A stretch of DNA of 32,297 nucleotides from a virus (taxonomy: Duplodnaviria > Heunggongvirae > Uroviricota > Caudoviricetes), in IMG/VR virus record IMGVR_UViG_2896589216_000003; one strand, given 5' to 3'. The translations under genes were made by a program, and so were the position numbers. The notes below the pieces were generated by a model that searched no databases, was not told where the DNA came from, and was given only the letters and a program-made list of their open reading frames with translations. Each line of letters starts with the position of its first letter. Position 1 is the first letter of the stretch. Positions 2,404 to 31,364 of this stretch are shown in pieces.

Positions 2404-2589
2404 TTGACCATGTTTGATTACCAAGTTTCCAAACATCCATATTTTGATGAAGCCTGTCGTGCATTTGCACTGCGCCACAATCTGGTGCAACTGGCAGAAC
2501 GTGCAGGCATGAATGTGCAGATTCTGCGGAACAAGCTGAACCCAGCTCAGCCTCATTTATTAACCGCACCAGAAATCTGGCTGCTTTGA
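2404..2589 (+). pseudogene. cII-like regulator, N-terminal 61 codons only; truncated by IS911 left end
   Basis: ORF stop codon TGA (2587-2589) is the first bases of the IS911 terminal repeat TGAAGTGGCACACTG; synteny with 186-type early operon. Confidence 0.55.
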
Positions 2590-2726
2590 AGTGGCACACT
2601 GAATTTGGCCACCTGAACAGAGGTGATATGCTCACCTCAGAACAACACAGGTGCTCCAATGAAAAAAAGAAATTTTAGCGCAGAGTTTAAACGCGAATCC
2701 GCTCAACTGGTTGTTGACCAGAAATA

Positions 2727-2735
2727 CACGGTGGC
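2727..2735. repeat. 9-bp target-site duplication CACGGTGGC, left copy, of IS1 copy 1
   Basis: Identical 9-mer at 3504-3512 immediately after the IS1 right end. Confidence 0.9.
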
Positions 2736-2790
2736 GGTGATGCTGCCAACTTACTGATTTAGTGTATGATGGTGTTTTTGAGGTGCTCCA

Positions 2791-3066
2791 GTGGCTTCTG
2801 TTTCTATCAGCTGTCCCTCCTGTTCAGCTACTGACGGGGTGGTGCGTAACGGCAAAAGCACTGCCGGACATCAGCGCTATCTCTGCTCTCACTGCCGTAA
2901 AACATGGCAACTGCAGTTCACTTACACCGCTTCTCAACCCGGTACGCACCAGAAAATTATTGATATGGCCATGAATGGCGTTGGATGCCGGGCAACTGCA
3001 CGCATTATGGGCGTTAGCCTCAACACGATTTTACGTCACTTAAAAAACTCAGGCCGCAGTCGGTAA
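2791..3066 (+). CDS. insA: IS1 InsA
   Basis: 91 aa, [42 protein letters not shown]... Confidence 0.95.
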
Positions 3067-3110
3067 CCTCGCGCATACAGCCGGGCAGTGACGTCATCGT
3101 CTGCGCGGAA

Positions 3111-4604
<1,494 letters not shown>

Positions 4605-4612
4605 CCACTTCA

Positions 4613-4783
4613 ACCGGCGATGGACTGTGTCTGCTGACCAAACGGCTGGAGCGCGGCCGCTTCGCCTGGCCGTCAGCCCGGGATGGCAAAGTGTTCCTCA
4701 CACCGGCACAGCTGGCGATGCTCCTTGAAGGTATCGACTGGCGGCAGCCTAAAAGACTGCTTACGTCCCTGACTATGTTGTAA
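4613..4783 (+). pseudogene. IS66-family tnpB, C-terminal fragment
   Basis: Begins directly at the IS911 right end with no start codon of its own. Confidence 0.7.
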
Positions 4784-4831
4784 GCCTCTTTATCCTGGTC
4801 GACGCTGAATGAGCCTGGTAATATACCCGGT

Positions 4832-6369
4832 ATGAGCAGCTCACTTCCTGACGATATCAATGCACTGAAACGTCTCCTTGCCGAACAGGAGGCGCTGAAC
4901 CGTGCCCTGCTGGAAAAGCTGAACGAGCGTGAACGCGAAATAGACCATCTGCAGGCACAGCTGGATAAGCTGCGCCGGATGAACTTCGGCAGCCGCTCCG
5001 AAAAAGTCTCCCGTCGTATCGCACAGATGGAAGCTGACCTGAAGGCACTTCAGAAAGAAAGTGATACCCTTACCGGTCGGGTTGACGACCCGGCCGTGCA
5101 GCGCCCGCTGCGTCAAACCCGCACCCGCAAACCGTTCCCCGAATCACTCCCCGCGATGAAAAACGGCTGCTGCCGGCAGCGTCATGCTGCCCGGAATGTG
5201 GAGGCTCACTGAGCTATCCGGGTGAGGATGCCGCCGAACAGCTGGAGTTGATGCGCAGCGTCTTCCGGGTTATCCGGACTGTACGTGAAAAGCATGCCTG
5301 TACTCAGTGCGATGCCATCGTGCAGGCCCCCGCGCCTTCACGGCCCATCGAGCGGGGTATCGCAGGACCGGGGCTGCTGGCCCGCGTGCTGATCTCAAAG
5401 TATGCAGAGCACACCCCGCTGTACCGCCAGTCTGAAATGTACGGCCGCCAGGGCGTGGAGCTGAGTCGTTCACTGCTGTCGGGCTGGGTGGATGCATGCT
5501 GCCGGCTACTGTCACCGCTGGAAGAAGCGCTTCAGGACTATGTGCTGACTGACGGTAAGCTCCATGCTGATGACACGCCTGTCCCGGTGCTGTTGCCAGG
5601 CAATAAGAAAACGAAGACCGGGCGGTTATGGACCTACGTTCGTGACGACCGTAACGCCGGGTCAACGCTGGCGCCGGCGGTGTGGTTCGCTTACAGCCCG
5701 GACAGAAAAGGCATCCATCCGCAGACCCATCTTGCGGGGTTCAGTGGTGTACTGCAGGCGGATGCATACGCCGGGTTCAACGAGCTGTACCGGGATGGCC
5801 GGATAACGGAAGCCGCCTGTTGGGCTCACGCCCGCCGTAAAATCCACGATGTGCACGTTCGCACCCCGTCAGCCCTGACGGAGGAAGCGCTGAAACGGAT
5901 CGGCGAACTGTACGCCATCGAGGCAGAGATAAGGGGAATGACGGCGGAGCAGCGCCTTGCCGAACGTCAGTTGAAAACGAAACCGCTGCTGAAATCCCTG
6001 GAAAGCTGGCTGCGTGAAAAGATGAAAACCCTGTCGCGACACTCAGAACTGGCGAAAGCGTTCGCATACGCCCTGAACCAGTGGCCGGCGCTGACGTACT
6101 ATGCAGATGATGGCTGGGCTGAGGCGGACAATAATATCGCTGAAAATGCGTTGCGGATGGTCAGTCTGGGCCGCAAAAACTACCTGTTCTTCGGTTCGGA
6201 TCATGGAGGAGAGCGGGGAGCGCTGCTGTACAGCCTGATCGGGACGTGCAAACTGAACGGAGTGGAGCCAGAAAGCTACCTCCGCTATGTACTTGACGTC
6301 ATAGCCGACTGGCCGATAAACCGGGTCGGCGAACTGCTCCCCTGGCGCGTAGCACTGCCGACTGAATAA
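4832..6369 (+). pseudogene. IS66-family transposase TnpC, frameshifted at the C-run 5149-5152
   Basis: ORF 4832..5212 ends ...[16 protein letters not shown]; the other frame continues [23 protein letters not shown]... straight into ORF 5248..6369. Confidence 0.8.
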
Positions 6370-6407
6370 CACATCCCCGTCAATACGGTTCTTGCTGCAC
6401 GCTTACC

Positions 6408-7396: not shown

Positions 7397-7411
7397 GGTA
7401 ATGACTCCAAC

Positions 7412-7915
7412 TCACTGATAGTGTTTTATGTTCAGATAATGCCCGATGACCTTGTCATGCAGCTCCACCGATTTTGAGAACGACAGTGACTTCCGTCCCA
7501 GCCTTGCCAGATGTTGTCTCAGATTCAGATTATGTCGCTCAATGCGCTGAGTGTAACGCTTGCTGATAACGTGCAGCTTTCCCTTCAGGCGTGATTCATA
7601 CAGCGGCCAGCCATCCGTCATCCATACCACGACCTCAAAGGCCGACAGCAGGCTCAGAAGACGCTCCAGTGTGGCCAGAGTGCGTTCACCGAAGACGTGC
7701 GCCACAACCGTCCTCCGTATCCTGTCATACGCGTAAAACAGCCAGCGCTGACGTGATTTAGCACCGACGTAGCCCCACTGTTCGTCCATTTCAGCGCAGA
7801 CAATCACATCACTGCCCGGTTGTATGCGCGAGGTTACCGACTGCGGCCTGAGTTTTTTAAGTGACGTAAAACCGTGTTGAGGCCAACGCCCATAATGCGT
7901 GCACTGGCGCGACAT
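7412..7915 (-). CDS. insB: IS1 InsB frame (variant isoform)
   Basis: Identical to the copy-3 InsB ORF. Confidence 0.9.
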
Positions 7916-8109
7916 CCGACGCCATTCATGGCCATATCAATGATTTTCTGGTGCGTACCGGGCTGAGAGGCGGTGTAAGTGAACTGTAGTTGCCATGTTT
8001 TACGGCAATGAGAGCAGAGATAGCGCTGATGTCCGGCAGTGCTTTTGCCGTTACGCACCACGCCTTCAGTAGCGGAGCAGGAAGGACATCTGATGGAAAT
8101 GGAAGCCAC
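7834..8109 (-). CDS. insA: IS1 InsA (variant isoform)
   Basis: [37 protein letters not shown]... Confidence 0.9.
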
Positions 8110-8164
8110 GCAAGCACCTTAAAATCACCATCATACACTAAATCAGTAAGTTGGCAGCATTACC

Positions 8165-8173
8165 ATTATTATA
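8165..8173. repeat. 9-bp target-site duplication ATTATTATA, right copy, of IS1 copy 2
   Basis: Matches 7388-7396. Confidence 0.9.
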
Positions 8174-8175
8174 TA

Positions 8176-8191
8176 CTGTAAATATAAACAG
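8176..8191 (+). promoter_or_regulatory. LexA (SOS) box CTGTAAATATAAACAG upstream of the tum/DinI-like cassette
   Basis: Matches CTGT-N8-ACAG with an AT-rich centre (20-mer TACTGTAAATATAAACAGTG); overlaps a -10-like TATAAA; 44 bp before the ATG at 8235. Confidence 0.6.
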
Positions 8192-8234
8192 TGGTTATGC
8201 ATGCAGTATTGCGTGTGGTGTCATAGGAGGAAAG

Positions 8235-8423
8235 ATGCAGGACTATTTTTTGGAGTCTTTGAAGCTCCAGCGCATTGATTTTTTTCTTAAGCTTGTAGCG
8301 GCTAGTGAGTGTAGTGATGAAGAGAAGGGGCTGGCTCTGCAGTGGGTTTCTGAATTGACTGATGAACTCATGGCAAAAATCAGAACCCACGAATACAACC
8401 GCTCAATGGATGTCATCAGCTGA
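8235..8423 (+). CDS. small protein, first gene of the SOS-controlled cassette (possible antirepressor N-part, Tum-like by position)
   Basis: ATG 8235 preceded by AGGAGG; 62 aa; the longer upstream start (8151) would overlap the IS1 end and LexA box. Confidence 0.5.
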   Translation: MQDYFLESLKLQRIDFFLKLVAASECSDEEKGLALQWVSELTDELMAKIRTHEYNRSMDVIS

Positions 8424-8433
8424 GGTGACTTTT

Positions 8434-8667
8434 ATGCGCATTGAAATAATGATCGATAAAGAGCAGAAGATTAGCCAGTCTACCCTGGACGCTCTTGAAT
8501 CCGAGCTTTACCGCAATCTGCGCCCTCTGTATCCCAAAACGGTAATTCGTATCCGCAAAGGTAGCTCTAACGGTGTGGAACTTACCGGATTGCAACTGGA
8601 CGAAGAAAGAAAACAAGTGATGAAAATTATGCAGAAGGTGTGGGAAGACGACAGCTGGCTGCATTAA
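8434..8667 (+). CDS. DinI-family protein (186 Tum C-domain-like)
   Basis: MRIEIMIDKEQKISQSTLDALESELYRNL...KQVMKIMQKVWEDDSW aligns with DinI (MRIEVTIAK...DALAGELSRR...ILQETWESADDW); RBS GAGG before ATG 8434. Confidence 0.75.
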   Translation: MRIEIMIDKEQKISQSTLDALESELYRNLRPLYPKTVIRIRKGSSNGVELTGLQLDEERKQVMKIMQKVWEDDSWLH

Positions 8668-8802
8668 GAAACGTTGCTGGCGTCTGAACTAGCTTCTGGC
8701 GTCAGCAAGGTTGAACAACGAGCCCTTGCGAGGCGTTAGCTCTGTAGTGCATGTCTATGCCGCATGAGATCGCATGATCGTTTGAGGATCGTTTTTGCTA
8801 AG

Positions 8803-8827
8803 GCCCGCCAGAACTGGCGGGCTTTTG
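8803..8827 (+). terminator. rho-independent terminator after the DinI-like gene
   Basis: GCCCGCCA-gaac-TGGCGGGC stem followed by TTTTG. Confidence 0.65.
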
Positions 8828-8889
8828 CGTAGATCATGCAGGTGCATGAAAACCACTACATAAAGCGGGCAGGCGTGGCGGGGATACGA

Positions 8890-8917
8890 TTGCGCGCTAG
8901 GTATAAGTGTGTAAAAT
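8890..8917 (+). promoter_or_regulatory. candidate sigma70 promoter for the ATPase/HNH module
   Basis: TTGCGC ... TG-adjacent TAAAAT about 40 bp upstream of ATG 8960; weak, by eye only. Confidence 0.25.
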
Positions 8918-8959
8918 AATTCCAAAATAAATCATCACTAATGAAGTGAGAGGGTAATA

Positions 8960-10609
8960 ATGTTAGTCAAGAAAAATAAAAATTATAGTTTATATTTTTT
9001 AATTACAAATAATCAACAGATATCTGATTCTGGTAATTATATAAAAATAGTCCCATCAAGAAGCGATTGGAATGATTTTGGATATTTGAGTAGAGTCGAA
9101 ATATCTATTTTTAATAAAAAAGAGTGTAAGGATATAATTTCACTGAATGGTTATATTGGTTTTTTGAATTCAGAGGAGGAACGAAATGGAAAAGCAGAAC
9201 TGATAAGGCGAGTGAAAAAAAAGGAAGAATCTAATTTAAAGGATGAGGGGTTTAATGATTATTTTGTCATGCTTCAGGATATGAATAATTATCGAAGACT
9301 AGTAAGATTTTTTGGGGTGAATGAATCCAAATATATATTAAATTTCATTAATGATGTTGTTTCTAAGAAAAGTGACGCTAGTGCAGAGAATTTGAGGAAA
9401 AAAGCAATCTCTTCTGATATCTTTAATAAATCTTTCATTAGAGAGTCTGAGTCGTATTTTACTTTCAAAAATGCAGGAACAGTTCTTTCCGGTATTCAAT
9501 ATGAGGAGTTGGGTAATTTATCACAGCACATCAAGATTAGCTATTCGAATAAAGTTAATGAAGAAGATGTATCTTATGTTTTTAATTTTGATCACGAGCA
9601 TGATTTACCAAAAAGAATTTCCATAATTATAGGCGAGAATGGTGTAGGAAAAAGCCAAACGCTTAGAGAAATCGCATTGGCTGCGATTAAAGGAAAGGAT
9701 AATTTGGTGGCTGTAGTTGATTCTAACGGTGTGAGCATTGAAGAACGAATTCAAATTAGTAGGCTCATTGCTTTTTCTCCAACAAATGAAAGTAAGTGTT
9801 CATTTCCAACCGATAAAAGAATAAAATCATTGATATGGTACAAAAGATTGACTTTAAATCGTGAATCAAAATCCAAATTAAACTTGAATGATTTAATAGT
9901 GCAACTAGCGAGGAGTAACGACGCTATCGGCTATAATCAAAGGTGGAATATATTTGTTGATGCACTGAGTGTTCTAAATAGTAACAACGATTTAGTAATC
10001 AAATGTGGCGGTGAAAATTCACCATTTGTTAAATTAAATGAGCTTAATTCTCGAGGCGAAGAATCTAGACTATCATTATATTCTGAAATTATTCTCTCTG
10101 GCGAGCCTTTGAGGCTTATTGAAAATAAATGTTACCCTTTGAGTAGTGGGGAAATATCGTTTATTAAGTTTTGTGTACAAGTTTGTTTGTATATTGAGAA
10201 TGGGACTCTTCTATTAATAGATGAGCCAGAAACACATCTCCATCCTTCATTTATTAATAAATTTATGGCATTGCTTGATAATTTATTAGAAAAGACAGGC
10301 TCTTCAGCTATCATAGCAACGCATTCGGTTTATCTTGTTCGGGAGGTTTTTAAGGAGCAAGTGACAATACTCAGAAGACGAGATGATGGGGTAATTGTTA
10401 GCGAAAAACCGAGATTGAGTACTTTTGGGGCGAATATAGGAAATATCTCATATTTTGTTTTCGGTGAGAGTGAACCAACTCAAATTTTAAATAAAGTAAA
10501 AAACAATATAATTGCAAAGAATATGTCTTGGGATGATGTTGAATCTAAATATAGCGAGGACTTATCACTTAATGTATTAACTGCGTTGAGAAATGAAATG
10601 GGCAATTGA
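8960..10609 (+). CDS. ABC/OLD-type (AAA_21-like) ATPase with about 215-aa N-terminal domain of unknown function; candidate defence protein
   Basis: 549 aa; Walker A GENGVGKS (aa 225-232), signature-like LSSGE (394-398), Walker B/D-loop LLLIDEPETHLHP (417-429), H-loop ATHS (453-456); RBS GAGAGGG; strongly AT-rich. Confidence 0.8.
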   Translation: MLVKKNKNYSLYFLITNNQQISDSGNYIKIVPSRSDWNDFGYLSRVEISIFNKKECKDIISLNGYIGFLNSEEERNGKAELIRRVKKKEESNLKDEGFNDYFVMLQDMNNYRRLVRFFGVNESKYILNFINDVVSKKSDASAENLRKKAISSDIFNKSFIRESESYFTFKNAGTVLSGIQYEELGNLSQHIKISYSNKVNEEDVSYVFNFDHEHDLPKRISIIIGENGVGKSQTLREIALAAIKGKDNLVAVVDSNGVSIEERIQISRLIAFSPTNESKCSFPTDKRIKSLIWYKRLTLNRESKSKLNLNDLIVQLARSNDAIGYNQRWNIFVDALSVLNSNNDLVIKCGGENSPFVKLNELNSRGEESRLSLYSEIILSGEPLRLIENKCYPLSSGEISFIKFCVQVCLYIENGTLLLIDEPETHLHPSFINKFMALLDNLLEKTGSSAIIATHSVYLVREVFKEQVTILRRRDDGVIVSEKPRLSTFGANIGNISYFVFGESEPTQILNKVKNNIIAKNMSWDDVESKYSEDLSLNVLTALRNEMGN

Positions 10610-11474
10610 AATGAATAAATTAAAAAGACCTGTTTTTAAAGATTATTCTGCATTTAAAAAACTATCTGCAAATAAGAGATTAAAACATCATTCTGTTCTG
10701 AATGGACAGGATACATTTATACTTAATGCATATAGATCGTACATAAAGAATAAAGGGTATCTTAATGTCAATTCTTGTGGCGTATTGAGTAACAATATTG
10801 CTGAAGCTTTGAGATATTATTATAACAATCCCGCAAAGTGTTTATCTATAATTGATGATATAAGAGCAGCTAATTCTAACTCTCTATGTCCAATGTGTGG
10901 TTCAATGCATAGCGGGACTTTGGATCATGTTTTACCCAAGGAAAACTATCCAGAATTTTCTTTATTCACTAAGAATTTGGTTCCTGCTTGCAAATGTAAT
11001 ACTTTCAAAAGTACTACTATAGCTAATTCTGCAGGCCATCGGATGCTGCATCCATATTTTGATAATATATTAAAACAAAGATTAATATGTGCTAATTTTT
11101 CTAAATTAGGGCGAACACCTACAATTGATGTAAAAATCATAATTGACCCAATGTCACCAGAATATAACAATGTTAAGTATCATCTTGATAATGTTGTTAT
11201 CAAGAATAATATTAAGGGGTATTTGTCTGAACAATGGGAGTCGTTTTACTTATATCCTGAGCTTGTTATTAGAGGACTGAATAAGAGTCTTTCTACTTAT
11301 AGCGATGTATATGAGTTGTTGACTCGCGAGTTGTTGCTGTTGGATGAAAAACATAAAGGTAAAAATAATTGGAATTCGGTTTTTGTAGCTGGGTTAATTC
11401 GACCTGATGTGATTAGGTGGATACTCTGTGAATTACATTTAGGTAACAGAAGTCCAGACGGTCGTCTCATATGA
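10593..11474 (+). CDS. HNH / His-Me-finger nuclease-like protein, partner of the ATPase
   Basis: CPMC-x8-DH-x20-CKCN ... H-x3-H (aa 99-153); overlaps the upstream gene by 17 nt (alternative in-frame ATG at 10611); same AT-rich composition. Confidence 0.7.
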   Translation: MKWAIEMNKLKRPVFKDYSAFKKLSANKRLKHHSVLNGQDTFILNAYRSYIKNKGYLNVNSCGVLSNNIAEALRYYYNNPAKCLSIIDDIRAANSNSLCPMCGSMHSGTLDHVLPKENYPEFSLFTKNLVPACKCNTFKSTTIANSAGHRMLHPYFDNILKQRLICANFSKLGRTPTIDVKIIIDPMSPEYNNVKYHLDNVVIKNNIKGYLSEQWESFYLYPELVIRGLNKSLSTYSDVYELLTRELLLLDEKHKGKNNWNSVFVAGLIRPDVIRWILCELHLGNRSPDGRLI

Positions 11475-11484
11475 TTTTTTGCAT

Positions 11485-11510
11485 CTTCAGCGTGTATCTG
11501 CACGCTGAAG
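11485..11510. repeat. perfect 10-bp inverted repeat (CTTCAGCGTG-tatctg-CACGCTGAAG) in the AT-rich spacer between the HNH gene and portal end; cos-proximal region
   Basis: Seen directly; T6 run upstream, A-rich downstream; not a canonical terminator in either direction. Confidence 0.4.
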
Positions 11511-11581
11511 AAATTCATAAAAACTGCTGCCTATTAATAAATTTTTTTAGCTGAGTTAAAGAACCTCATTTAGTGATTACG

Positions 11582-12615
11582 TTAAGTAGCTAGTTTATAA
11601 CTATCAAATTTAACAATGTTCTCACTTACCAATTTATTTATTTCCATCATTCTTTTTTGTAACGGTATTAACTCGTTACGTACAAACACCAGGCTCGCCT
11701 TCTCCACATCCCCAAACCCCCGACATTATTAGGCATAATCCCCATCATTTGCGGTGGCACACGATGCGCCGCCATCATGTCATCCCGGCTCACGTTCTTG
11801 ATGTTCAGAAACTCATCCTTCGCCGCGACTTCTGACAACGGGATGATCTGAAGCCCGTCCTTTTTGCCGTTAGGCGAGTACATAAACAGATTGCGGAAGT
11901 TACCTGGTCCTTTGGCGCTTTTCATCGCATTGCGGAGGTTGTTCACATCCTCCTGGTTTTGCGCGGCATCGGTCATGTACATGATGAAGCCTGCATGACT
12001 GCCGTTAATGTAATACTATCGGCGGAACAGCGTGGCGGACTCGTTGAGCAGGGCTGACGGAATGGCAGAAAGGTAACCTGGCAGGCCGTAGATCTCTTGG
12101 TTGATGTCCGGTTCCATCAGATGAAAGATGCTTCCTTTCGTGAACTGATACGGCTGCGTGGTCATGCCGTATTGCACAAACCAGTAGGTATCCAGGTCTA
12201 ATCCGCGTCGGGTGTATTTTGCCAGAGCAGGCTCAAGAGCGATGACCTCTCCGAACCGGTTTGTGCGTTTCTCCAGGTAAGCGTTACCAAATACCAGATA
12301 ATCCTGCACAAAACGTGAAAAAGCCTGCTGGCTGAGCAGCGGGTGAGGGATGTAGGTACTGATCAGAATGTTGCATTTCACCGCAATTGGTGAACTGTGA
12401 TGCACGGCGGCGCGGAAGGTGCGCGCCAGTCCGTCAAAACTCACTGGCGGCTCATACCAGCGATCTGTCTGTACGCATTCCACATAGTCCAGTAGTTCAC
12501 GGCGGTCCAGAACCGGAACGGGATCGCCGAAGCTGAATGCTTCGGCTGAAGTCTGGTTTTTATGCTGGGTCTGTTTCGTCGCCGCAGCGCGGTTCTTCTT
12601 ACTCTTTCCCATCAA
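11582..12615 (-). pseudogene. Q: portal protein (P2 gpQ-like) with in-frame TAG (12016-12018) and a 1-bp frameshift near 11714-11716
   Basis: N-part ...LNESATLFRR then TAG, continuing in the same frame (LYINGSHAGFIMY...); C-terminal ...PNNVGGLGMWRRR* shifts frame, the other frame gives GDVEKASLVFVRNELIPLQ... to stop at 11582. Confidence 0.8.
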
Positions 12616-19871: not shown

Positions 19872-20265
19872 ATTGCAGAAGGTGGACGACTGGCTGAGTG
19901 CATTATTGGCGAATCTGGAGCCAGCCGCAAGAAGCCGCATGATGCGCCAGCTGGCGCAGGAACTGCGCCGGACACAGCAGCAGAATATCAGGATGCAGCG
20001 CAATCCAGATGGCAGCAGTTATGAGCCGCGCAGGGTAACAGCACGCAGCAAAAAGGGGCGCATCAAACGTCAGATGTTTACAAAGCTGCGCACCACAAAA
20101 TACCTGAAAACTGCAGCCAGCGCCGATTCTGCCAGCGTACAGTTTGAAGGTAGGGTGCAGCGCATTGCCCGTATTCACCATTACGGCTTGAGTGATCGCG
20201 TCAGTCGAAAAGGTATTTATACCATCTATGCGAAAAGGCAGTTATTAGGTTTTAATGTCCGGTAA
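19864..20265 (+). pseudogene. S: tail completion protein, P2 gpS-like, 3'-truncated by IS1 copy 3
   Basis: Stop codon TAA (20263-20265) is formed by IS1 terminal bases; ...YAKRQLLGFNVR*. Confidence 0.7.
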
Positions 20266-20315
20266 TGCTGCCAACTTACTGATTTAGTGTATGATGGTGA
20301 TTTTAAGGTGCTTGC

Positions 20316-20591
20316 GTGGCTTCCATTTCCATCAGATGTCCTTCCTGCTCCGCTATTGAAGGCGTGGTGCGTAACGGCAAAAGAACTGCCGGACATCAGC
20401 GCTATCTCTGCTCTCATTGCCGTAAAACATGGCAACTACAGTTCACTTACACCGCCTCTCAGCCCGGTACGCACCAGAAAATCATTGATATGGCCATGAA
20501 TGGCGTCGGATGTCGCGCCAGTGCACGCATTATGGGCGTTGGCCTCAACACGGTTTTACGTCACTTAAAAAACTCAGGCCGCAGTCGGTAA
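20316..20591 (+). CDS. insA: IS1 InsA (variant isoform)
   Basis: [37 protein letters not shown]... Confidence 0.9.
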
Positions 20592-21013
20592 CCTCGCGCA
20601 TACAACCGGGCAGTGATGTGATTGTCTGCGCTGAAATGGACGAACAGTGGGGCTACGTCGGTGCTAAATCACGTCAGCGCTGGCTGTTTTACGCGTATGA
20701 CAGGATACGGAGGACGGTTGTGGCGCACGTCTTCGGTGAACGCACTCTGGCCACACTGGAGCGTCTTCTGAGCCTGCTGTCGGCCTTTGAGGTCGTGGTA
20801 TGGATGACGGATGGCTGGCCGCTGTATGAATCACGCCTGAAGGGAAAGCTGCACGTTATCAGCAAGCGTTACACTCAGCGCATTGAGCGACATAATCTGA
20901 ATCTGAGACAACATCTGGCAAGGCTGGGACGGAAGTCACTGTCGTTCTCAAAATCGGTGGAGCTGCATGACAAGGTCATCGGGCATTATCTGAACATAAA
21001 ACACTATCAGTAA
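20510..21013 (+). CDS. insB: IS1 InsB frame (variant isoform)
   Basis: 167-aa ORF identical to that of copy 2. Confidence 0.9.
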
Positions 21014-21023
21014 GTTGGCAGCA

Positions 21024-21560
21024 TTACCATGCAGCCCTCACAATATAGTTAAAAGCGACATTTCGTGGGCGTGTTTCATTCGCACCTGCAGGTTTAGTCG
21101 TTGCCGCAACAACACCACCCTCTGTAATAGCCGGGTTGGGAATTGGGTAATTATCGAAGTCAATGGCCGGAGACAGGGGCGTGATTTGTTTTAAAATCGT
21201 GGTGCCTGTAAAACTTTCCAGAGTCTGGTCGTTAGTTCGTGAAGTCCAGATTCCCCAATAGTGGTTATGACTGACAATCGCACCGTCCTGAAGCGTTAAT
21301 AATCCCCTTCCGTTATCCACTCCACGTCCGTCATCCCAGCCACGAATAAACTCACCGCGTAAATCAGGCAATTTATTTGTCGGGTAAGCCTTTGCCAGTT
21401 CCGGGTATTCTTCAGCAGAAAAAGCCGCACCATTGCATTTCAGCCAGCCTGTCGGCGGAGTGGCTGAAGGCCACGGAACAGGCACACCAACAGGTAATGC
21501 AGAGCCTTCTCCCAAACCAACGTTTAAGAAAATGCAGAGATAATGGCTAACTGGCATCAT
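21024..21560 (-). pseudogene. tail-fibre variable C-terminal cassette (inverted-orientation segment of a Gin/Pin-type shufflon), truncated by IS1 copy 3
   Basis: ...PVGVPVPWPSATPPTGWLKCNGAAFSAEEYPELAKAYPTNKLPDLRGEFIRGWDDGRGVDNGRG... conserved tail-fibre junction motif; ORF begins at the crossover-like site and runs into the IS1 end. Confidence 0.65.
21507..21532. promoter_or_regulatory. gix/hix/cix-like 26-bp imperfect palindrome: candidate invertase crossover site
   Basis: TTCTCCCAAACCAACGTTTAAGAAAA resembles gix (TTATCCAAAACCTCGGTTTACAGGAA); sits at the 5' end of the tail-fibre cassette next to the invertase gene. Confidence 0.5.
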
Positions 21561-24477: not shown

Positions 24478-27400
24478 ATGAGTGACAATAACCTGCGTCT
24501 GCAGGTGATTCTTAATGCGGTTGACAAACTCACCCGCCCATTTCGATCCGCGCAGGCCAGTTCAAGAGAACTGGCTGCTGCTGTCAAAAAATCCCGCGAT
24601 GCAATAAAGCAGCTTGATCAGGCCGGGAGCAGTCTGGACAGCTTCCGAAAGCTGCAGGCAGAAAATCAGAAATTAGGCGACAGGCTGAACTATGCCCGCC
24701 AGCGTGCAAATTTGCTCAGTCAGGAACTGGGAGCGATGGGGCCGCCTTCGCAACGTCAGGTTGTTGCTCTGGGCCGTCAACGGCTGGCTGTTCAGCGCCT
24801 GGAAGAACGCCAGAAAAAGCTGCAGCAGCAGACGGCGCTTGTGCGTGCAGAACTTTATCGTGCTGGTATTTCAGCTAATGATGGCGCCAGTGCGACGGCC
24901 CGCATTACCCGTGAAACGATGCGTTATAACAGGCAGCTTTCTGAGCAGGAAGCGAGGTTACGACGTGTCGGGGAGCAACAGCGAAAAATGCACGCCGCCC
25001 GGGGGCTTACGCCAGGCGTCTTGAGGTAAGGGATCGTATTGCAGGTGCCGGAGCCACCACCACGGCTGCAGGGCTGGCAATGGGCGCACCAGTGATGGCG
25101 GCAGTAAAAAGCTATACCAGCATGGAAGATGCCATGAAAGGTGTGGCAAAGCAGGTCAATGGTCTGCGTGACGATAATGGCAACCGCACTGCGCGTTTTT
25201 ACGAAATGCAGGGTGCCATCAAGGCTGCCAGCGAACAGTTGCCGATGGAAAACGGTGCTGTGGACTTCGCCGCACTGGTTGAAGGTGGTGCGCGCATGAA
25301 CGTCGCAAACCCTGACGACAGCTGGGAAGACCAGAAACGTGACCTGCTGGCCTTCGCCAGCACGGCGGCAAAGGCGGCAACAGCCTTTGAACTGCCAGCG
25401 GATGAACTGTCAGAAAGTCTGGGGAAAATCGCCCAGCTCTACAAAATCCCTACCCGCAATATTGAGCAGCTCGGTGATGCGCTGAACTATCTGGATGATA
25501 ACGCCATGTCGAAAGGGGCGGACATCATTGATGTCATGCAACGCCTGGGCGGTGTGGCTGACCGTCTGGATTATCGTAAAGCGGCGGCGCTGGGTTCCAC
25601 CTTCCTGACACTCGGCGCTGCGCCTGAGGTTGCAGCCAGTGCAGCAAACGCGATGGTGCGTGAATTGTCCATTGCCACCATGCAAAGCAAGAGTTTCTTT
25701 GAAGGGATGAATCTGCTGAAACTCAATCCAGAAGTGATTGAAAAGCAGATGACGAAGGATGCGATGGGAACTATCCAGCGGGTGCTGGAGAAGGTGAATG
25801 CGCTGCCACAGGATAAGCGCCTGTCTGCCATGACCATGTTGTTTGGTAAAGAGTTTGGCGATGACGCAGCGAAACTGGCAAACAACCTGCCGGAACTTCA
25901 GCGCCAGTTAAAACTGACTGCGGGCAATGATGCGCTCGGTTCCATGCAGAAAGAATCCGACATCAACAAGGATTCACTTTCTGCTCAGTGGTTGCTGGTC
26001 AAAACCGGAGCACAGAACACCTTCAGCAGCCTGGGGGAAACGCTGCGCCAGCCGCTGATGGATATTCTGTACACGGTGAAAAGCGTCACGGGGGCGTTGC
26101 GTCGCTGGGTGGAAGCTAACCCGGAACTGACGGGCACTCTGATGAAAGTAGCCGCTGTGGTAGCTGCCGTTACCGTGGGCCTCGGCACCTTAGAGGTGGC
26201 GCTGGCTGCAGTGCTGGGGCCGCTGGCAGTCATCCGTCTGGGATTCTCTGTGCTGGGTATCAAAACGTTACCTTCCGTTACGGCAGCAGTAACCCGAACC
26301 AGCAACGCGTTGTCCTGGCTGGCTGGCGCACCACTGGCACTGCTGCGACGCGGGCTTGCTTCATCGGGCAACGCTGCAGGTTTACTTACTGCGCCGTTGT
26401 CGTCTTTGCGCCGCACGGCATCACTGACGGGAAATGTCCTGAAAACTGTAGCAGGTGCGCCGGTTGCACTTTTGCGGGTCTGGATTATCCGGTTTACGTG
26501 CGGTTGCTGTGATGTTTATGAATCCACTGGCGGTACTACGCGGCGGACTGGCTGCCACAGGCACGGTGCTGCGTATGCTCGCATCCGGTCCACTGGCGAT
26601 GCTGCGCGTTGCCCTGTATGCCGTCTCTGGTCTGTTAGGTGCTCTGCTCAGTCTGATAGGTCTTGTGGTTACTGCACTGGCGGGTGTGGCGCTGGTTGTC
26701 TGGAAATACTGGCAGCCCATCACCACATTTCTCGGTGGCGTGGTGGAAGGATTCAAAGCGGCGGCAGGTCCTGTCAGTGCCGCGTTCGAACCGCTTAAGC
26801 CTGTGTTCCAGTGGATTGGCGACAAAGTACAGGCGCTGTGGGGCTGGTTTACTGATCTGCTGACGCCCGTTAAGTCGACCTCTGCCGAACTGCAGAGTGC
26901 AGCGGCAATGGGGCGACGATTCGGGGAGGCTCTGGCGGAAGGGCTGAATATGGTCATGCATCCGCTGGACTCCCTGAAATCCGGCGTTTCCTGGTTGCTG
27001 GAGAAACTTGGCATTGTCAGTAAAGAGGCCGCAAAGGCGAAACTGCCGGAAAGCGTGACGCGTCAGCAACCTGCGACGGTGAATGCAGACGGTAAAGTGA
27101 TGATGCCATCGGGTGGTTTTCCGTCATGGGGATATGGCTTTGCGGGGATGTATGACAGCGGCGGGTATATCCCGCGCGGGCAGTTTGGCATCGTCGGTGA
27201 AAACGGGCCGGAAATTGTTAACGGCCCGGCAAATGTGACCAGCCGGAGAAATACAGCTGCACTGGCTGCCGTTGTTGCCGGAATGATGGGTGTTGCTGCT
27301 ACGCCAGCAGAGCTTCCACCGTTGCACCCTTTGGCACTTCCCGCGAAAGGCGGTGAAGCGATGGTGAGTCGTGCAGCCACTGTGCCGCCCGTTCAACGGA

Positions 27401-27555
27401 TTGAGGCACCGATGCAGATCATCATTCAAACGCAGCCAGGACAAAGTGCGCAGGATATTGCGCGGGAGGTGGCCCGCCAGCTTGATGAACGTGAACGCAG
27501 GCTGAAGGCAAAAGCCAGGAGTAACTACAGCGATCAGGGGGGATACGACGCATGA
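24478..27555 (+). pseudogene. T: tail tape measure protein (P2 gpT-like) with two frame discontinuities (about 24999-25005 and about 26483-26511); genuine lesions or sequencing errors
   Basis: Three ORFs (24478..25029, 25080..26798, 26455..27555) tile the gene in frames 1/0/1; first break is in a G5 run; ORF2 tail reads as out-of-frame nonsense. Confidence 0.7.
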
Positions 27556-29443: not shown

Positions 29444-29529
29444 CGCTGCCGCCATTTTGTCGCCATCGTTAAAAAACAGTGCTTCTAACATCATGATTTT
29501 AAAAGGCATAAATTTCAGACAACAAAAAA

Positions 29530-29566
29530 CCCATCAACCTTGAACCGAAATGGCGGGGTTGATGGG
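29530..29566 (-). terminator. rho-independent terminator downstream of ybjL (minus-strand sense)
   Basis: CCCATCAACC ... GGTTGATGGG 10-bp stems with a 17-nt loop, followed on the minus strand by a T6 run. Confidence 0.5.
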
Positions 29567-29678
29567 CTCCACAAAATGGGGACATCAAAGAAAAGCAGTG
29601 GCACTAATTAAGACTGATGCCCTGCGGAAAAGTTCTGCGGTTGTGCAAAAAAATTTCATTTTCAGGGCAACTTCAGTT

Positions 29679-31364
29679 TTATCCTAATCCTGGCCATACC
29701 ATGACGATGATTGTCCCTGCCAGCGTCAGCAGGACGTTGGCGATTGCGTAGGTGCCCGCATAGCCCAGCGCAGGGATGTTACTGCGAGCTGTATCACTGA
29801 TGATCTCCATTGCCGGCGCGCAGGTGCGTGCGCCCATCATTGCGCCGAACAACAGTGCGCGGTTCATTCGCAATACATAAGCACCGAACAAGAAACAGAT
29901 AACCACGGGCACAAGACTGACAATTAATCCGGCAATCAACATCTGACCGCCAATCGCGGCCAGGCCGTTATTAATACCGCTACCGGCGCTCAGACCAACG
30001 CCTGCCATAAACACCATCAAGCCGAACTCTTTCACCATGCTTAATGCACCTTGCGGAATGTAACCGAAGGTCGGGTGGTTAGCACGCATAAAGCCCAGCA
30101 TAATTCCGGCGAATAACAACCCGGCAGCGTTCCCCATGCCGAAACTGAATGTGCTGAACTGGAAGGTGATCATCCCGATCATCAGCCCAATAACAAAGAA
30201 GGCGCAAAATGCCAGCAGGTCAGTGACCTGGCTGTGAATCGAGATAAAGCCGATGCGATCGGCAATGGTTTTTACGCGACGGGCATCACCGCTGACTTGT
30301 AAAACGTCACCTTTGTTAAGCACGACGTTGTCATCTATCGGCATCTCAATCTGGCTACGAATGACGCGGTTAAGGAAGCAACCGTGATCGGTCAACTTCA
30401 GTTGTGCGAGACGTTTACCTACAGCGTTATGGTTTTTAACGACCACTTCTTCAGTGACGATACGCATGTCGAGAAGGTCACGATCGAAAACTTCTTTACC
30501 GTTACGGAAGCTGGGATCGAGTCGGGCATGGGCGTCGGGATAGCCTACCAACGCTATTTCATCGCCCATTTGTAGCACGGCATCACCGTCTGGATTTGCC
30601 AGAATCCCGTTACGTCGAATACGTTCAATGTAGCAGCCGGTTTGTCGATAAATACCCAGTTCACGCAGATTTTTGCCGTCGGTCCAGGCCACCAGCTCCG
30701 GGCCGACGCGATAGGCGCGGATCACCGGTAAATAAACCTTACGGTTGGCATCAGTGTCCAGGCCACGTTCGCGGGCGATTTGCTGGGCGCTGGTCTGTAA
30801 GTCCTGATGCTGCAATTTCGGCAAGTAACGCGCACCAACAATCAAACTCACCAGACCGATTAAATAGGTTAAGGCATACCCGAGGCTCAGATTATCCAGT
30901 GCCAGTGAGAGCTGCCTGCTTTCCATGCCGGAATGACGCAGTGTATCGCCAGCACCGACCAGAACCGGTGTCGACGTCATAGAGCCTGCTAACATACCGG
31001 CCGTCAGGCCAATATCCCAGCCAAACAGCTTACCTAACCCTAAGGCGATCACCAGCGCACTGCCAACCATCACCAGTGCTAACATTAGGTAATTTTTCCC
31101 ATCGCGAAAAAAAATGGAAAAAAAGTTCGGTCCGGCTTCGACCCCGACGCAGAAAATAAACAGCATAAAGCCAAGATTAAGCGCATCGGTGTTAATGCTG
31201 AAATGTTGTTGGCCTAATAACAGCGATACGACTAAAACGCCAATGGAATTACCCAGTTGGATCGAACCAAGTCGTAACTTTCCGAGACATAGCCCAAGCG
31301 CGAGGACCACAAATAATAACAGAATGTAATTCCCATTTAACAATTCGGCGACGTTTATATTCAC
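29679..31364 (-). CDS. ybjL: putative transport protein YbjL (AAE-family transporter with TrkA-C domains); host gene
   Basis: 561 aa, [33 protein letters not shown]...; recognised as enterobacterial YbjL. Confidence 0.9.

Follow-up and report, generated by a model that had tools for sequence, protein, structure and literature searches.

Two adjacent genes, named A and B here, lie on the + strand of a 32,297-nucleotide viral record (IMG/VR IMGVR_UViG_2896589216_000003; this whole stretch is referred to as the window). The features of the locus are as follows.

8800..8826, + strand: terminator-like GC hairpin (GCCCGCC-AGAACT-GGCGGGC, then TTTT), 3' of a DinI-like gene
8948..8954, + strand: ribosome-binding site GAGAGGG, 5 nt before the gene A ATG, read from sequence
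8960..10609, + strand: gene A (ORF1), 549-aa ABC-type ATPase of the PDC-M01A / lambda Ea59 family
8960..9514, + strand: N-terminal domain of gene A, aa 1-185, beta-rich then helical
9632..9655, + strand: Walker A / P-loop GENGVGKS of gene A, aa 225-232, with K231; G225, N227, G228, G230, K231 and S232 invariant (35 sequences)
10139..10153, + strand: ABC signature LSSGE of gene A, aa 394-398, invariant (35-sequence alignment)
10208..10246, + strand: Walker B and D-loop of gene A, LLLIDEPETHLHP, aa 417-429 (35-sequence alignment)
10316..10327, + strand: H-loop ATHS of gene A, aa 453-456; T454, H455 and S456 invariant (35 sequences)
10611..11474, + strand: gene B (ORF2), 287-aa HNH (His-Me finger) nuclease of the PDC-M01B / lambda Ea31 family
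10887..11057, + strand: HNH catalytic and zinc core of gene B, C93-x2-C96 ... D105-H106 ... N122 ... C127-x-C129-N130 ... H147-P-Y (287-aa numbering)

The initial annotation had described two co-oriented open reading frames of 549 and 293 aa, and both were found on the + strand, at 8960-10609 and 10593-11474. The 293-aa frame is the maximal ORF of gene B, read from an alternative upstream ATG at 10593. ATG 10611, 1 nt past the ORF1 stop at 10609, is the likely start, since it is the one annotated in RefSeq and conservation in the family begins at MNK. The frames had also been said to overlap; their tight coupling stands, but the 17-nt overlap holds solely for the 293-aa version of ORF2. The ribosome-binding site attributed to the module was recovered at the spacing listed above. 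A possible promoter had been proposed as well; in a sigma-70-like scan, site counts equalled the shuffled expectation and no site was located between 8827 and 8960, so this proposal was dropped. The sequence TTGCGC-N16-TAAAAT at 8890-8917 bears a weak resemblance to a promoter by eye only and is not claimed as one. The hairpin at 8800-8826 (dG -25.1 kcal/mol, z -4.98) was equalled by 0 of 200 shuffles and is a predicted terminator that would separate the module from upstream transcription. On the strength of this hairpin, a separate transcription unit can be argued for genes A and B.

GC content is 0.30-0.34 over 9001-11500, against 0.44-0.45 in the adjoining 500-nt bins and 0.53-0.62 farther away, in keeping with the earlier description of an AT-rich island among the flanking phage genes. 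The neighbours of the module are an IS1, an orf, DinI and the portal gene. Comparison with an intact, 99.7%-identical prophage and with the survey of Rousset et al. 2022 (PMC9122126), in which the gpA-gpQ position of P2-like prophages is a cargo hotspot, confirmed that the module is AT-rich cargo in this cos-proximal hotspot, that is, in the P2 old/tin position where it had been placed. The exact gene A ATPase is already present in the P2-hotspot table of that survey; its partner is labelled 'hypothetical' there because Pfam detects no HNH domain in ORF2. The host prophage is decayed, yet most of its retained genes are intact, at 99-100% identity. The survival of an intact operon in a decayed prophage had been taken as a sign of selection. 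This argument was rejected because the majority of retained genes are likewise intact: the phage DNA that remains, about 24 kb, contains four point lesions, and by simple arithmetic a 2.5-kb segment then has a chance of about 2/3 of being spared. Purifying selection on the module is shown instead by a dN/dS of about 0.1 relative to an 80%-identical relative.

All the ATPase motifs that had been read in ORF1 (Walker A, LSSGE, Walker B/D-loop and ATHS) are present and invariant across the 35-sequence alignment; in the Walker B/D-loop stretch the invariant residues are L417, L419, D421, E422, P423, E424, H426, L427, H428 and P429. The N-terminal domain has its own invariant positions (P32, N38, D39, F40, G67, M104, L105, Y111, R112, D132, S158, F159 and R161) and a dN/dS of 0.097. 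No match to it was obtained in Pfam or PDB searches. A profile of the domain run against 1.84 billion representatives gave 262 matches; among the 150 listed with positions, nearly all were proteins of about 530-580 aa with the domain at the N-terminus, or fragments. The domain thus appears confined to this family of ATPases, in which it is proposed to act as a sensor or regulator. Sequence and profile searches of the PDB with ORF1 returned generic ABC-core matches only, and the ORF1 model, compared with BFVD by Foldseek, matched generic ABC ATPases only (TM about 0.2-0.3), the N-terminal domain being unmatched. Similarity of the ATPase in sequence and fold to UvrA, Rad50 and SMC heads could suggest that the phage carries an ATPase-nuclease pair for DNA repair or recombination, of the SbcCD/Rad50-Mre11 or UvrA kind. 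That similarity is limited to the generic ABC core, however; there is no coiled-coil and no Mre11-type partner, the actual partner is PtuB-like, and the surroundings are those of mobile and defence-associated DNA, which together make such a role highly improbable.

In gene B, residues C93, C96, D105, H106, N122, C127, C129, N130 and H147 are invariant in 34 sequences (H106 in the 287-aa protein is H112 in the 293-aa maximal ORF). The HNH-like core originally read as CPMC/DH/CKCN/H-x3-H is therefore upheld, except that the first His of H-x3-H is not conserved. The core was aligned to the CxxC / EH / N / CxxCN of one P2-hotspot PtuB, and its His-to-Asn spacing of 16 residues is the same as that of H75/N91 in PtuB of Septu EcB88. 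Pfam detected no HNH domain in ORF2, and PDB sequence and profile searches with it gave nothing significant. The predicted fold matches PtuB, not small phage HNH proteins.

Both proteins were assigned to families by PADLOC over their full length. Gene A matched PDC-M01A model PDLC04242 at 3.2e-55 (residues 27-539 on profile positions 31-551 of 566), and four more PDC-M01A models at 1e-40 to 2e-50. Gene B matched PDC-M01B model PDLC04270 at 1.2e-33 (residues 8-270 on positions 3-263 of 280), and its 25 top PADLOC matches were all PDC-M01B models. In PHROGs, A and B matched 8066 and 18937, two phage families without annotated function. PDC systems are phage defence candidates in their authors' own description. 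Literature searches with RefSeq accessions and with ea59/ea31 found no functional study and no experiment on the family as a defence system. The module had been called a divergent Septu-like or an undescribed system. Septu does prove to be the nearest characterised relative, but the cassette is already catalogued (PDC-M01, PHROGs 8066/18937, the Rousset table, and lambda ea59-ea31) and hence is not an undescribed system.

Coupling of the two genes is strict: in 84 of 87 family loci A directly precedes B in the same orientation, and in 82 of these the two genes are -14 to +5 nt apart. The N-terminal domain is present in 72 of the 84, and no third conserved gene was seen across the family loci. 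Besides being AT-rich and mobile, the cassette has a patchy distribution. Among 5,426 complete genomes of E. coli it occurs in 3; in Shigella it is common, the exact A and B proteins being on about 700-1000 contigs. The portal gene is 107 nt away from the end of gene B, with the terminase just past it, a position that would suit an HK97 gp74-type packaging accessory aiding terminase at cos. This candidate was rejected on several counts: the 287-aa protein has the wrong size and a fold resembling PtuB rather than small phage HNH proteins, it is coupled to the ATPase in nearly all loci, the pair is found in non-phage settings such as Type I R-M operons and ICEs, and the cargo of other P2-like prophages at the same site is unrelated (1,650 arrangements recorded in PMC9122126). 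Distribution effectively refutes it. A selfish toxin-antitoxin or addiction cassette, in which toxin B is held by A and persistence results from post-segregational killing with no dedicated anti-phage role, would agree with the AT-rich, mobile and patchy character of the cassette, with the mention of AbiEii/type IV TA in the Pfam AAA_21 description and with the toxicity of unrestrained retron-associated PtuAB (PMC12819146). But repeated placement within Type I R-M operons and defence islands points to immunity, and stand-alone Septu defends without behaving as a simple TA system; toxin-antitoxin behaviour can also coexist with abortive-infection defence. Pure addiction is considered improbable.

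Lambda Ea59 and Ea31 both fall in the same PADLOC families (PDC-M01A/PDC-M01B) as A and B, and the A-B pair is, by sequence comparison, homologous to ea59-ea31. The lambda genes lie in the non-essential b region beside int/att and are expressed early during lytic growth. A lambda-specified endonuclease was reportedly described in older work (1982) as ATP-dependent and ssDNA-dependent; secondary citations point to Ea31/Ea59 as its probable identity. In the literature searched, ea59 and ea31 appear only as dispensable DNA for deletion. The purification of a lambda-specified endonuclease from infected cells is cited in PMC5241400. Taken with the early expression, the b-region location and the record of the family in PHROGs as two phage protein families, this could mean that A-B serves the lytic growth of the phage itself, attacking host or competitor nucleic acids or countering host defences, rather than protecting the lysogen. 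Against this, family members were found mostly outside recognisable phages, in bacterial chromosomes, ICEs, Type I R-M operons and defence islands (7 viral contigs versus 80 genome loci kept), and the terminator-like hairpin would insulate the cassette from the phage genes that precede it, a usual trait of cargo with its own expression. A lytic accessory role is judged unlikely, though less so than addiction.

The anti-phage function of the cassette is a candidate one. It is probable that this translationally coupled pair of the lambda Ea59/Ea31 type (PDC-M01), a likely distant sister of Septu, acts in anti-phage defence. We infer complex formation, trigger, substrate and phenotype as follows. 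By analogy with PtuAB, ATPase A would oligomerise and grip nuclease B via the helical domains of B, and nucleotide binding and hydrolysis by A would gate B. The nuclease activity of B would be freed on a cue from an infecting phage, which the N-terminal domain of A plausibly senses; the substrate may be DNA (nicked or cleaved) or a tRNA. Replication of the competing phage would be halted, probably with growth arrest of the cell. It is also conceivable, as a tentative proposal, that Ea59/Ea31 cassettes are more than divergent Septu and make up a branch with a function of its own, whose N-terminal domain would sense a nucleic-acid cue (e.g. ssDNA or intermediates of replication) and whose HNH nuclease would be switched on by ATP instead of being held back; this would fit the old description of the ATP- and ssDNA-dependent lambda endonuclease.

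An active cassette would validate PADLOC candidate PDC-M01, add to the Septu-like ATPase-HNH theme an architecture that has a putative sensor domain of its own, and tie a defence family to lambda ea59 and ea31. For the triggering of ABC-ATPase-gated HNH nucleases, lambda would be a tractable genetic system and the endonuclease of the older work a biochemical handle. If the ATP-activated branch were true, lambda, P2-like phages, ICEs and Type I R-M operons would share an unrecognised inter-phage weapon, and ea59 and ea31 of the b region would gain a function. The frequency of the cassette in Shigella means that it could influence phage susceptibility in phage therapy or typing. If inactive or merely Septu-like, it would be another entry among many P2-hotspot cargoes.

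Among known systems, Septu (PtuA/PtuB) is supported as the nearest characterised relative; the comparators were stand-alone PtuA/PtuB, structures 8EE4/8EE7 and E. coli Septu EcB88. A and B show remote homology and fold similarity to PtuA/PtuB, and the A-B family is probably a distant sister of Septu. Both ATPases are of the ABC type with Walker A, signature, Walker B and H-loop, and their Walker B regions align. In PtuA, Walker A is at the extreme N-terminus (lysine K43 in EcB88, about 35 in the P2-hotspot PtuA), whereas in gene A the 185-aa N-terminal domain precedes the ATPase and the lysine is K231. Walker A and Walker B are about 190 residues apart in gene A and about 270 in EcB88 PtuA; gene B is about 40 aa longer than PtuB, and its second zinc knuckle is CxC instead of CxxC. 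PADLOC models part PDC-M01 from Septu cleanly in both directions, and neither A nor B reached curated PtuA/PtuB thresholds: gene A scored 41.1 bits, over its C-terminal part only, against NCBIfam NF041760 (curated PtuA, cut-off 500), an equivalog model for the retron Ec78 type. The sole PADLOC 'PtuA' model matching gene A over its full length, PDLC00282, is in effect the Ea59 subfamily. Retron type I-A (Retron-Eco7/Ec78, Ec83 PtuA-PtuB) was rejected, as neither an RT nor an msr/msd ncRNA is adjacent; Rfam gave no family within 8165-11600. OLD, GajA and AriA share with gene A an AAA_15/AAA_21-type ABC ATPase with weak sequence and fold similarity of the core, and P2 old likewise is cargo, occupying the same hotspot. 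AriA, OLD and ATPase-Toprim models match gene A in the ATPase core only, and no Toprim match was found for A or B in Pfam, PADLOC or NCBIfam. OLD, Gabija and PARIS were rejected because Toprim is absent and the nuclease is a separate HNH protein; the domain order of ORF1, an N-terminal domain before the ATPase and no Toprim, indeed differs from OLD, GajA, AriA and PtuA, as first noted. The lambda pair is like A-B in gene order, sizes (ea59, 525 aa; ea31, 296 aa) and stop-start coupling, and N38, D39, G67, F68, L105, D132, S158 and R161 of the N-terminal domain are kept in the alignment with Ea59. Identity is only 23.5-23.7% to Ea59 and 37% to Ea31 over the HNH core, which places A-B in a different subfamily; the best PADLOC models are PDLC04242 and PDLC04270 for A and B versus PDLC04235 and PDLC04256 for Ea59 and Ea31. 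A-B occupies the P2 cos-proximal hotspot, and ea59-ea31 the lambda b region.

The cassette consists of two co-oriented genes sited between a DinI-like gene and the portal gene:

8434-8664, DinI-like gene, upstream neighbour of the cassette
8960-10609, + strand, ORF1 (A), ATPase, 549 aa
10593-11474, + strand, ORF2 (B), HNH nuclease, maximal ORF as called
10611-11474, + strand, ORF2 from the RefSeq start, 287 aa, where family conservation also begins

The GC content is 0.30-0.34 in the 9001-11500 interval and reaches 0.53-0.62 in phage genes lying further away; a close relative of the cassette in Scandinavium is AT-rich to an equal degree versus its own flanks. The AT-rich ATPase and HNH two-gene module described in the initial annotation was confirmed. 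A GC-rich hairpin followed by a T-run at 8800-8826 (dG -25.1 kcal/mol, z -5) and a ribosome-binding site, GAGAGGG, at 8948-8954 jointly frame a separate transcription unit; a promoter scan gave no site in the gap between them. Conservation of the P2 backbone stops near 8905, and about 1,224 E. coli records matched only the first ~205 nt of a query starting at 8700. The cassette itself was present in only three of 5,426 complete E. coli genomes. Its site is the gpA-gpQ hotspot, which in P2 holds old and tin and for which protection by several cargo systems has been shown (PMC9122126).

The prophage is P2-like and matches an intact one, integrated beside rcdA/ybjL in E. coli UPEC-245U, at 99.2-99.9% identity. 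Its decay, claimed in the initial annotation, was borne out by a nonsense codon, frameshifts, IS insertions and deletions. The features concerned, and the end of the prophage, are:

4-1053, - strand, integrase, nonsense codon at position 208
3111-3488, partial IS1 in the IS pile
3765-4604, IS3-family rve transposase in the IS pile
4832-5212 and 5248-6369, IS66-family genes in the IS pile
7397-8164, further IS1 copy, flanked by replication gene A and the small orf that precedes DinI
11585-12612, - strand, portal gene, frameshift near 11710-11719
about 20260-21030, further IS1 copy, associated with a deletion
24478-27552, + strand, tape-measure gene, two frameshifts, near 25002 and 26478
29521-29599, - strand, RybB sRNA (Rfam RF00110, 105 bits), just outside the ogr end

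The IS1/IS3/IS66 pile (2587-6404) takes the place of the early region and of codons 1-505 of the phage replication gene A; the early genes lost there are CII from aa 60, Fil, DUF5347, DUF2732, TraR and dam. The region for baseplate and tail fibres has been lost: the IS1-associated deletion at ~20260-21030 takes V, W, J and I, the end of S, most of H and the tail-fibre assembly genes, together with a DUF5677 cargo gene kept in the intact relative (locus L096, 14696-15715). RybB is followed by ybjL (29679-31364) and then ybjM, this stretch being chromosomal DNA that flanks the attachment site.

Selection had been proposed because the operon is intact in a decayed prophage. This argument failed: about two dozen other genes are equally intact (99-100% identity), and intactness of the cassette is uninformative, since four point lesions in ~24 kb give, by our own arithmetic, 0.4 expected in 2.5 kb. 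Versus the intact relative, only 5 nt of the cassette differ; at the protein level, a single residue of A is changed and B is identical. The case for selection is carried instead by the dN/dS values, calculated against an 80%-identical Scandinavium pair: 0.088 for A (0.097 for the N-domain, residues 1-185; 0.076 for the remainder) and 0.108 for B.

Full-length homologs of A and B (40-55% identity) were found across Gamma-, Beta- and Alphaproteobacteria, with more distant relatives in Verrucomicrobia, Geobacteraceae and Bacteriovoracaceae. In the homolog alignment, the Walker A (G225...K231-S232), signature LSSGE (394-398), Walker B/D-loop (D421-E-P-E...H-L-H-P429) and H-loop (T454-H-S) of ORF1 are invariant, as are a dozen further residues within its first 185 aa. 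In ORF2, C93/C96, D105-H106, N122, C127/C129-N130 and H147-P-Y are invariant; only half of the H-x3-H motif initially read there is conserved.

Loci were recovered through the B protein (87 loci). A lies directly upstream of B on the same strand in 84, and in 82 of these the spacing between A stop and B start is -14 to +5 nt (mode -4). No conserved third gene was found beside A-B among the recovered loci. At seven loci of a Rhizobium/Agrobacterium clade (L053, L055, L057, L058, L059, L067 and L076; e.g. L057 8910-9551), the gene directly 3' of B on the same strand encodes DUF2026; it may be a third component confined to this lineage, or simply a linked gene. Ten loci are co-directional with Type I R-M genes, typically as hsdR-hsdM-hsdS-A-B, with R-M subunits verified by Pfam. 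Seven loci from marine Gammaproteobacteria (L061, L062, L070, L072, L079, L082 and L087) have this order with the pair directly after the R-M genes, the A start adjoining or overlapping the hsdS stop; this arrangement suggests co-transcription. Elsewhere, the pair was seen in an ICE and in two islands, one bordered by an integrase and holding HipA and a ScoMcrA-like gene, the other holding GmrSD, a T5orf172 helicase and Eco57I.

Using PADLOC, ORF1 was assigned to PDC-M01A (3.2e-55, residues 27-539; PtuA models rank next) and ORF2 to PDC-M01B (1.2e-33, residues 8-270). Pfam gave only AAA_21/AAA_15 on ORF1 and no match on ORF2; scores against NCBIfam PtuA and TIGR02646 were far below cut-offs. 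In PHROGs, the two proteins fall in phrog_8066 and phrog_18937, both function-unannotated phage families. The PDC systems are 145 candidates derived by Payne et al. through 'guilt-by-embedding', and PDC-M01 calls overlap Septu calls in practice (PMC11811056). The ATPase was already catalogued in the P2-hotspot table of Rousset, its partner not being recognised as HNH; no sign of curation or test of the cassette was found.

In tblastn against phage genomes, lambda Ea59 matched residues 21-549 of ORF1 (23.5-23.7% identity, E 3e-13 to 6e-13), and lambda Ea31 matched the HNH core of ORF2 (37% identity, E 2e-8). The lambda genes (b region, L008 3510-5974 = NC_001416 24509-26973, PADLOC PDC-M01A/B) overlap by 4 nt, with ea59 (525 aa) first and ea31 (296 aa) second. 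Ea59 belongs over its full length to PDC-M01A (7e-202) and Ea31 to PDC-M01B (8e-112), and Ea59 has the N-domain motifs of ORF1. PDLC00282, the only PADLOC 'PtuA' model to match ORF1 full-length, also matches Ea59 full-length (3.7e-184), so it is in effect an Ea59 subfamily model. Lambda therefore carries a Septu-like ATPase-HNH pair. The cassette is a member of PDC-M01, the family of lambda Ea59/Ea31, and the suggestion of a possibly undescribed system was set aside; the main proposal, that the P2 hotspot holds a divergent, Septu-like candidate for defence, was supported within reach of computation.

The endonuclease purified from lambda-infected cells reportedly consists of Ea31 plus Ea59. 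In the literature searched, no paper was found tying ea59/ea31 to PDC-M01 or Septu, and the genes are treated solely as non-essential b-region genes, apart from two secondary mentions: a passage naming an 'ATP-dependent nuclease EA31' (PMC5714182) and one naming a lambda 'single-stranded-DNA-dependent endonuclease' (Benchimol et al. 1982, as cited in PMC5241400).

Sequence comparison with Pfam and the PDB gave no relative of the N-domain. A profile of this domain gave only 262 matches among 1.84 billion representative proteins; of the 150 matches with listed positions, nearly all were proteins of ~530-580 aa with the domain N-terminal, or fragments, and four were 705-812-aa variants. From this distribution, the domain appears specific to the Ea59-type ATPase family. 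The four variants (P0332, P0335, P0341 and P0359) are ATPases with an extra 155-290 residues ahead of the N-domain. The chief points of note are this putative sensor domain, which looks family-specific, and the link to lambda.

What is established here is how the cassette is built, its homology, the coupling of its genes, its context and its selection; the best-supported reading of the mechanism, an inferred one, is a PtuAB-like complex. An oligomeric ABC ATPase (A) would scaffold and gate the HNH nuclease (B), infection would unleash B, and the N-domain would be the obvious candidate sensor. In Septu, both enzymatic activities are required and the outcome is abortive-infection-like, with tRNA-Tyr cleaved (PMC13096335); for stand-alone PtuAB, DNA nicking that declines as ATP rises has also been reported (PMC12819146).

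Structure predictions were of moderate confidence (ORF1, pLDDT 77.7, pTM 0.69; ORF2, pLDDT 79, pTM 0.80). For comparison with Septu, a canonical pair of the same P2 hotspot was used (Rousset Table S5B no. 105). Its alignment with the cassette covered no more than 67 ATPase and 48 HNH columns, and PADLOC assigned this pair exclusively to PtuA/PtuB models; the two families are therefore related yet reciprocally distinct. Compared with Septu, ORF1 adds the 185-aa N-terminal domain, its Walker A lysine being at 231 versus 43 in Septu EcB88, and has a shorter Walker A-to-Walker B stretch, whereas the second zinc knuckle is CxC in ORF2 and CxxC in the Septu nuclease.
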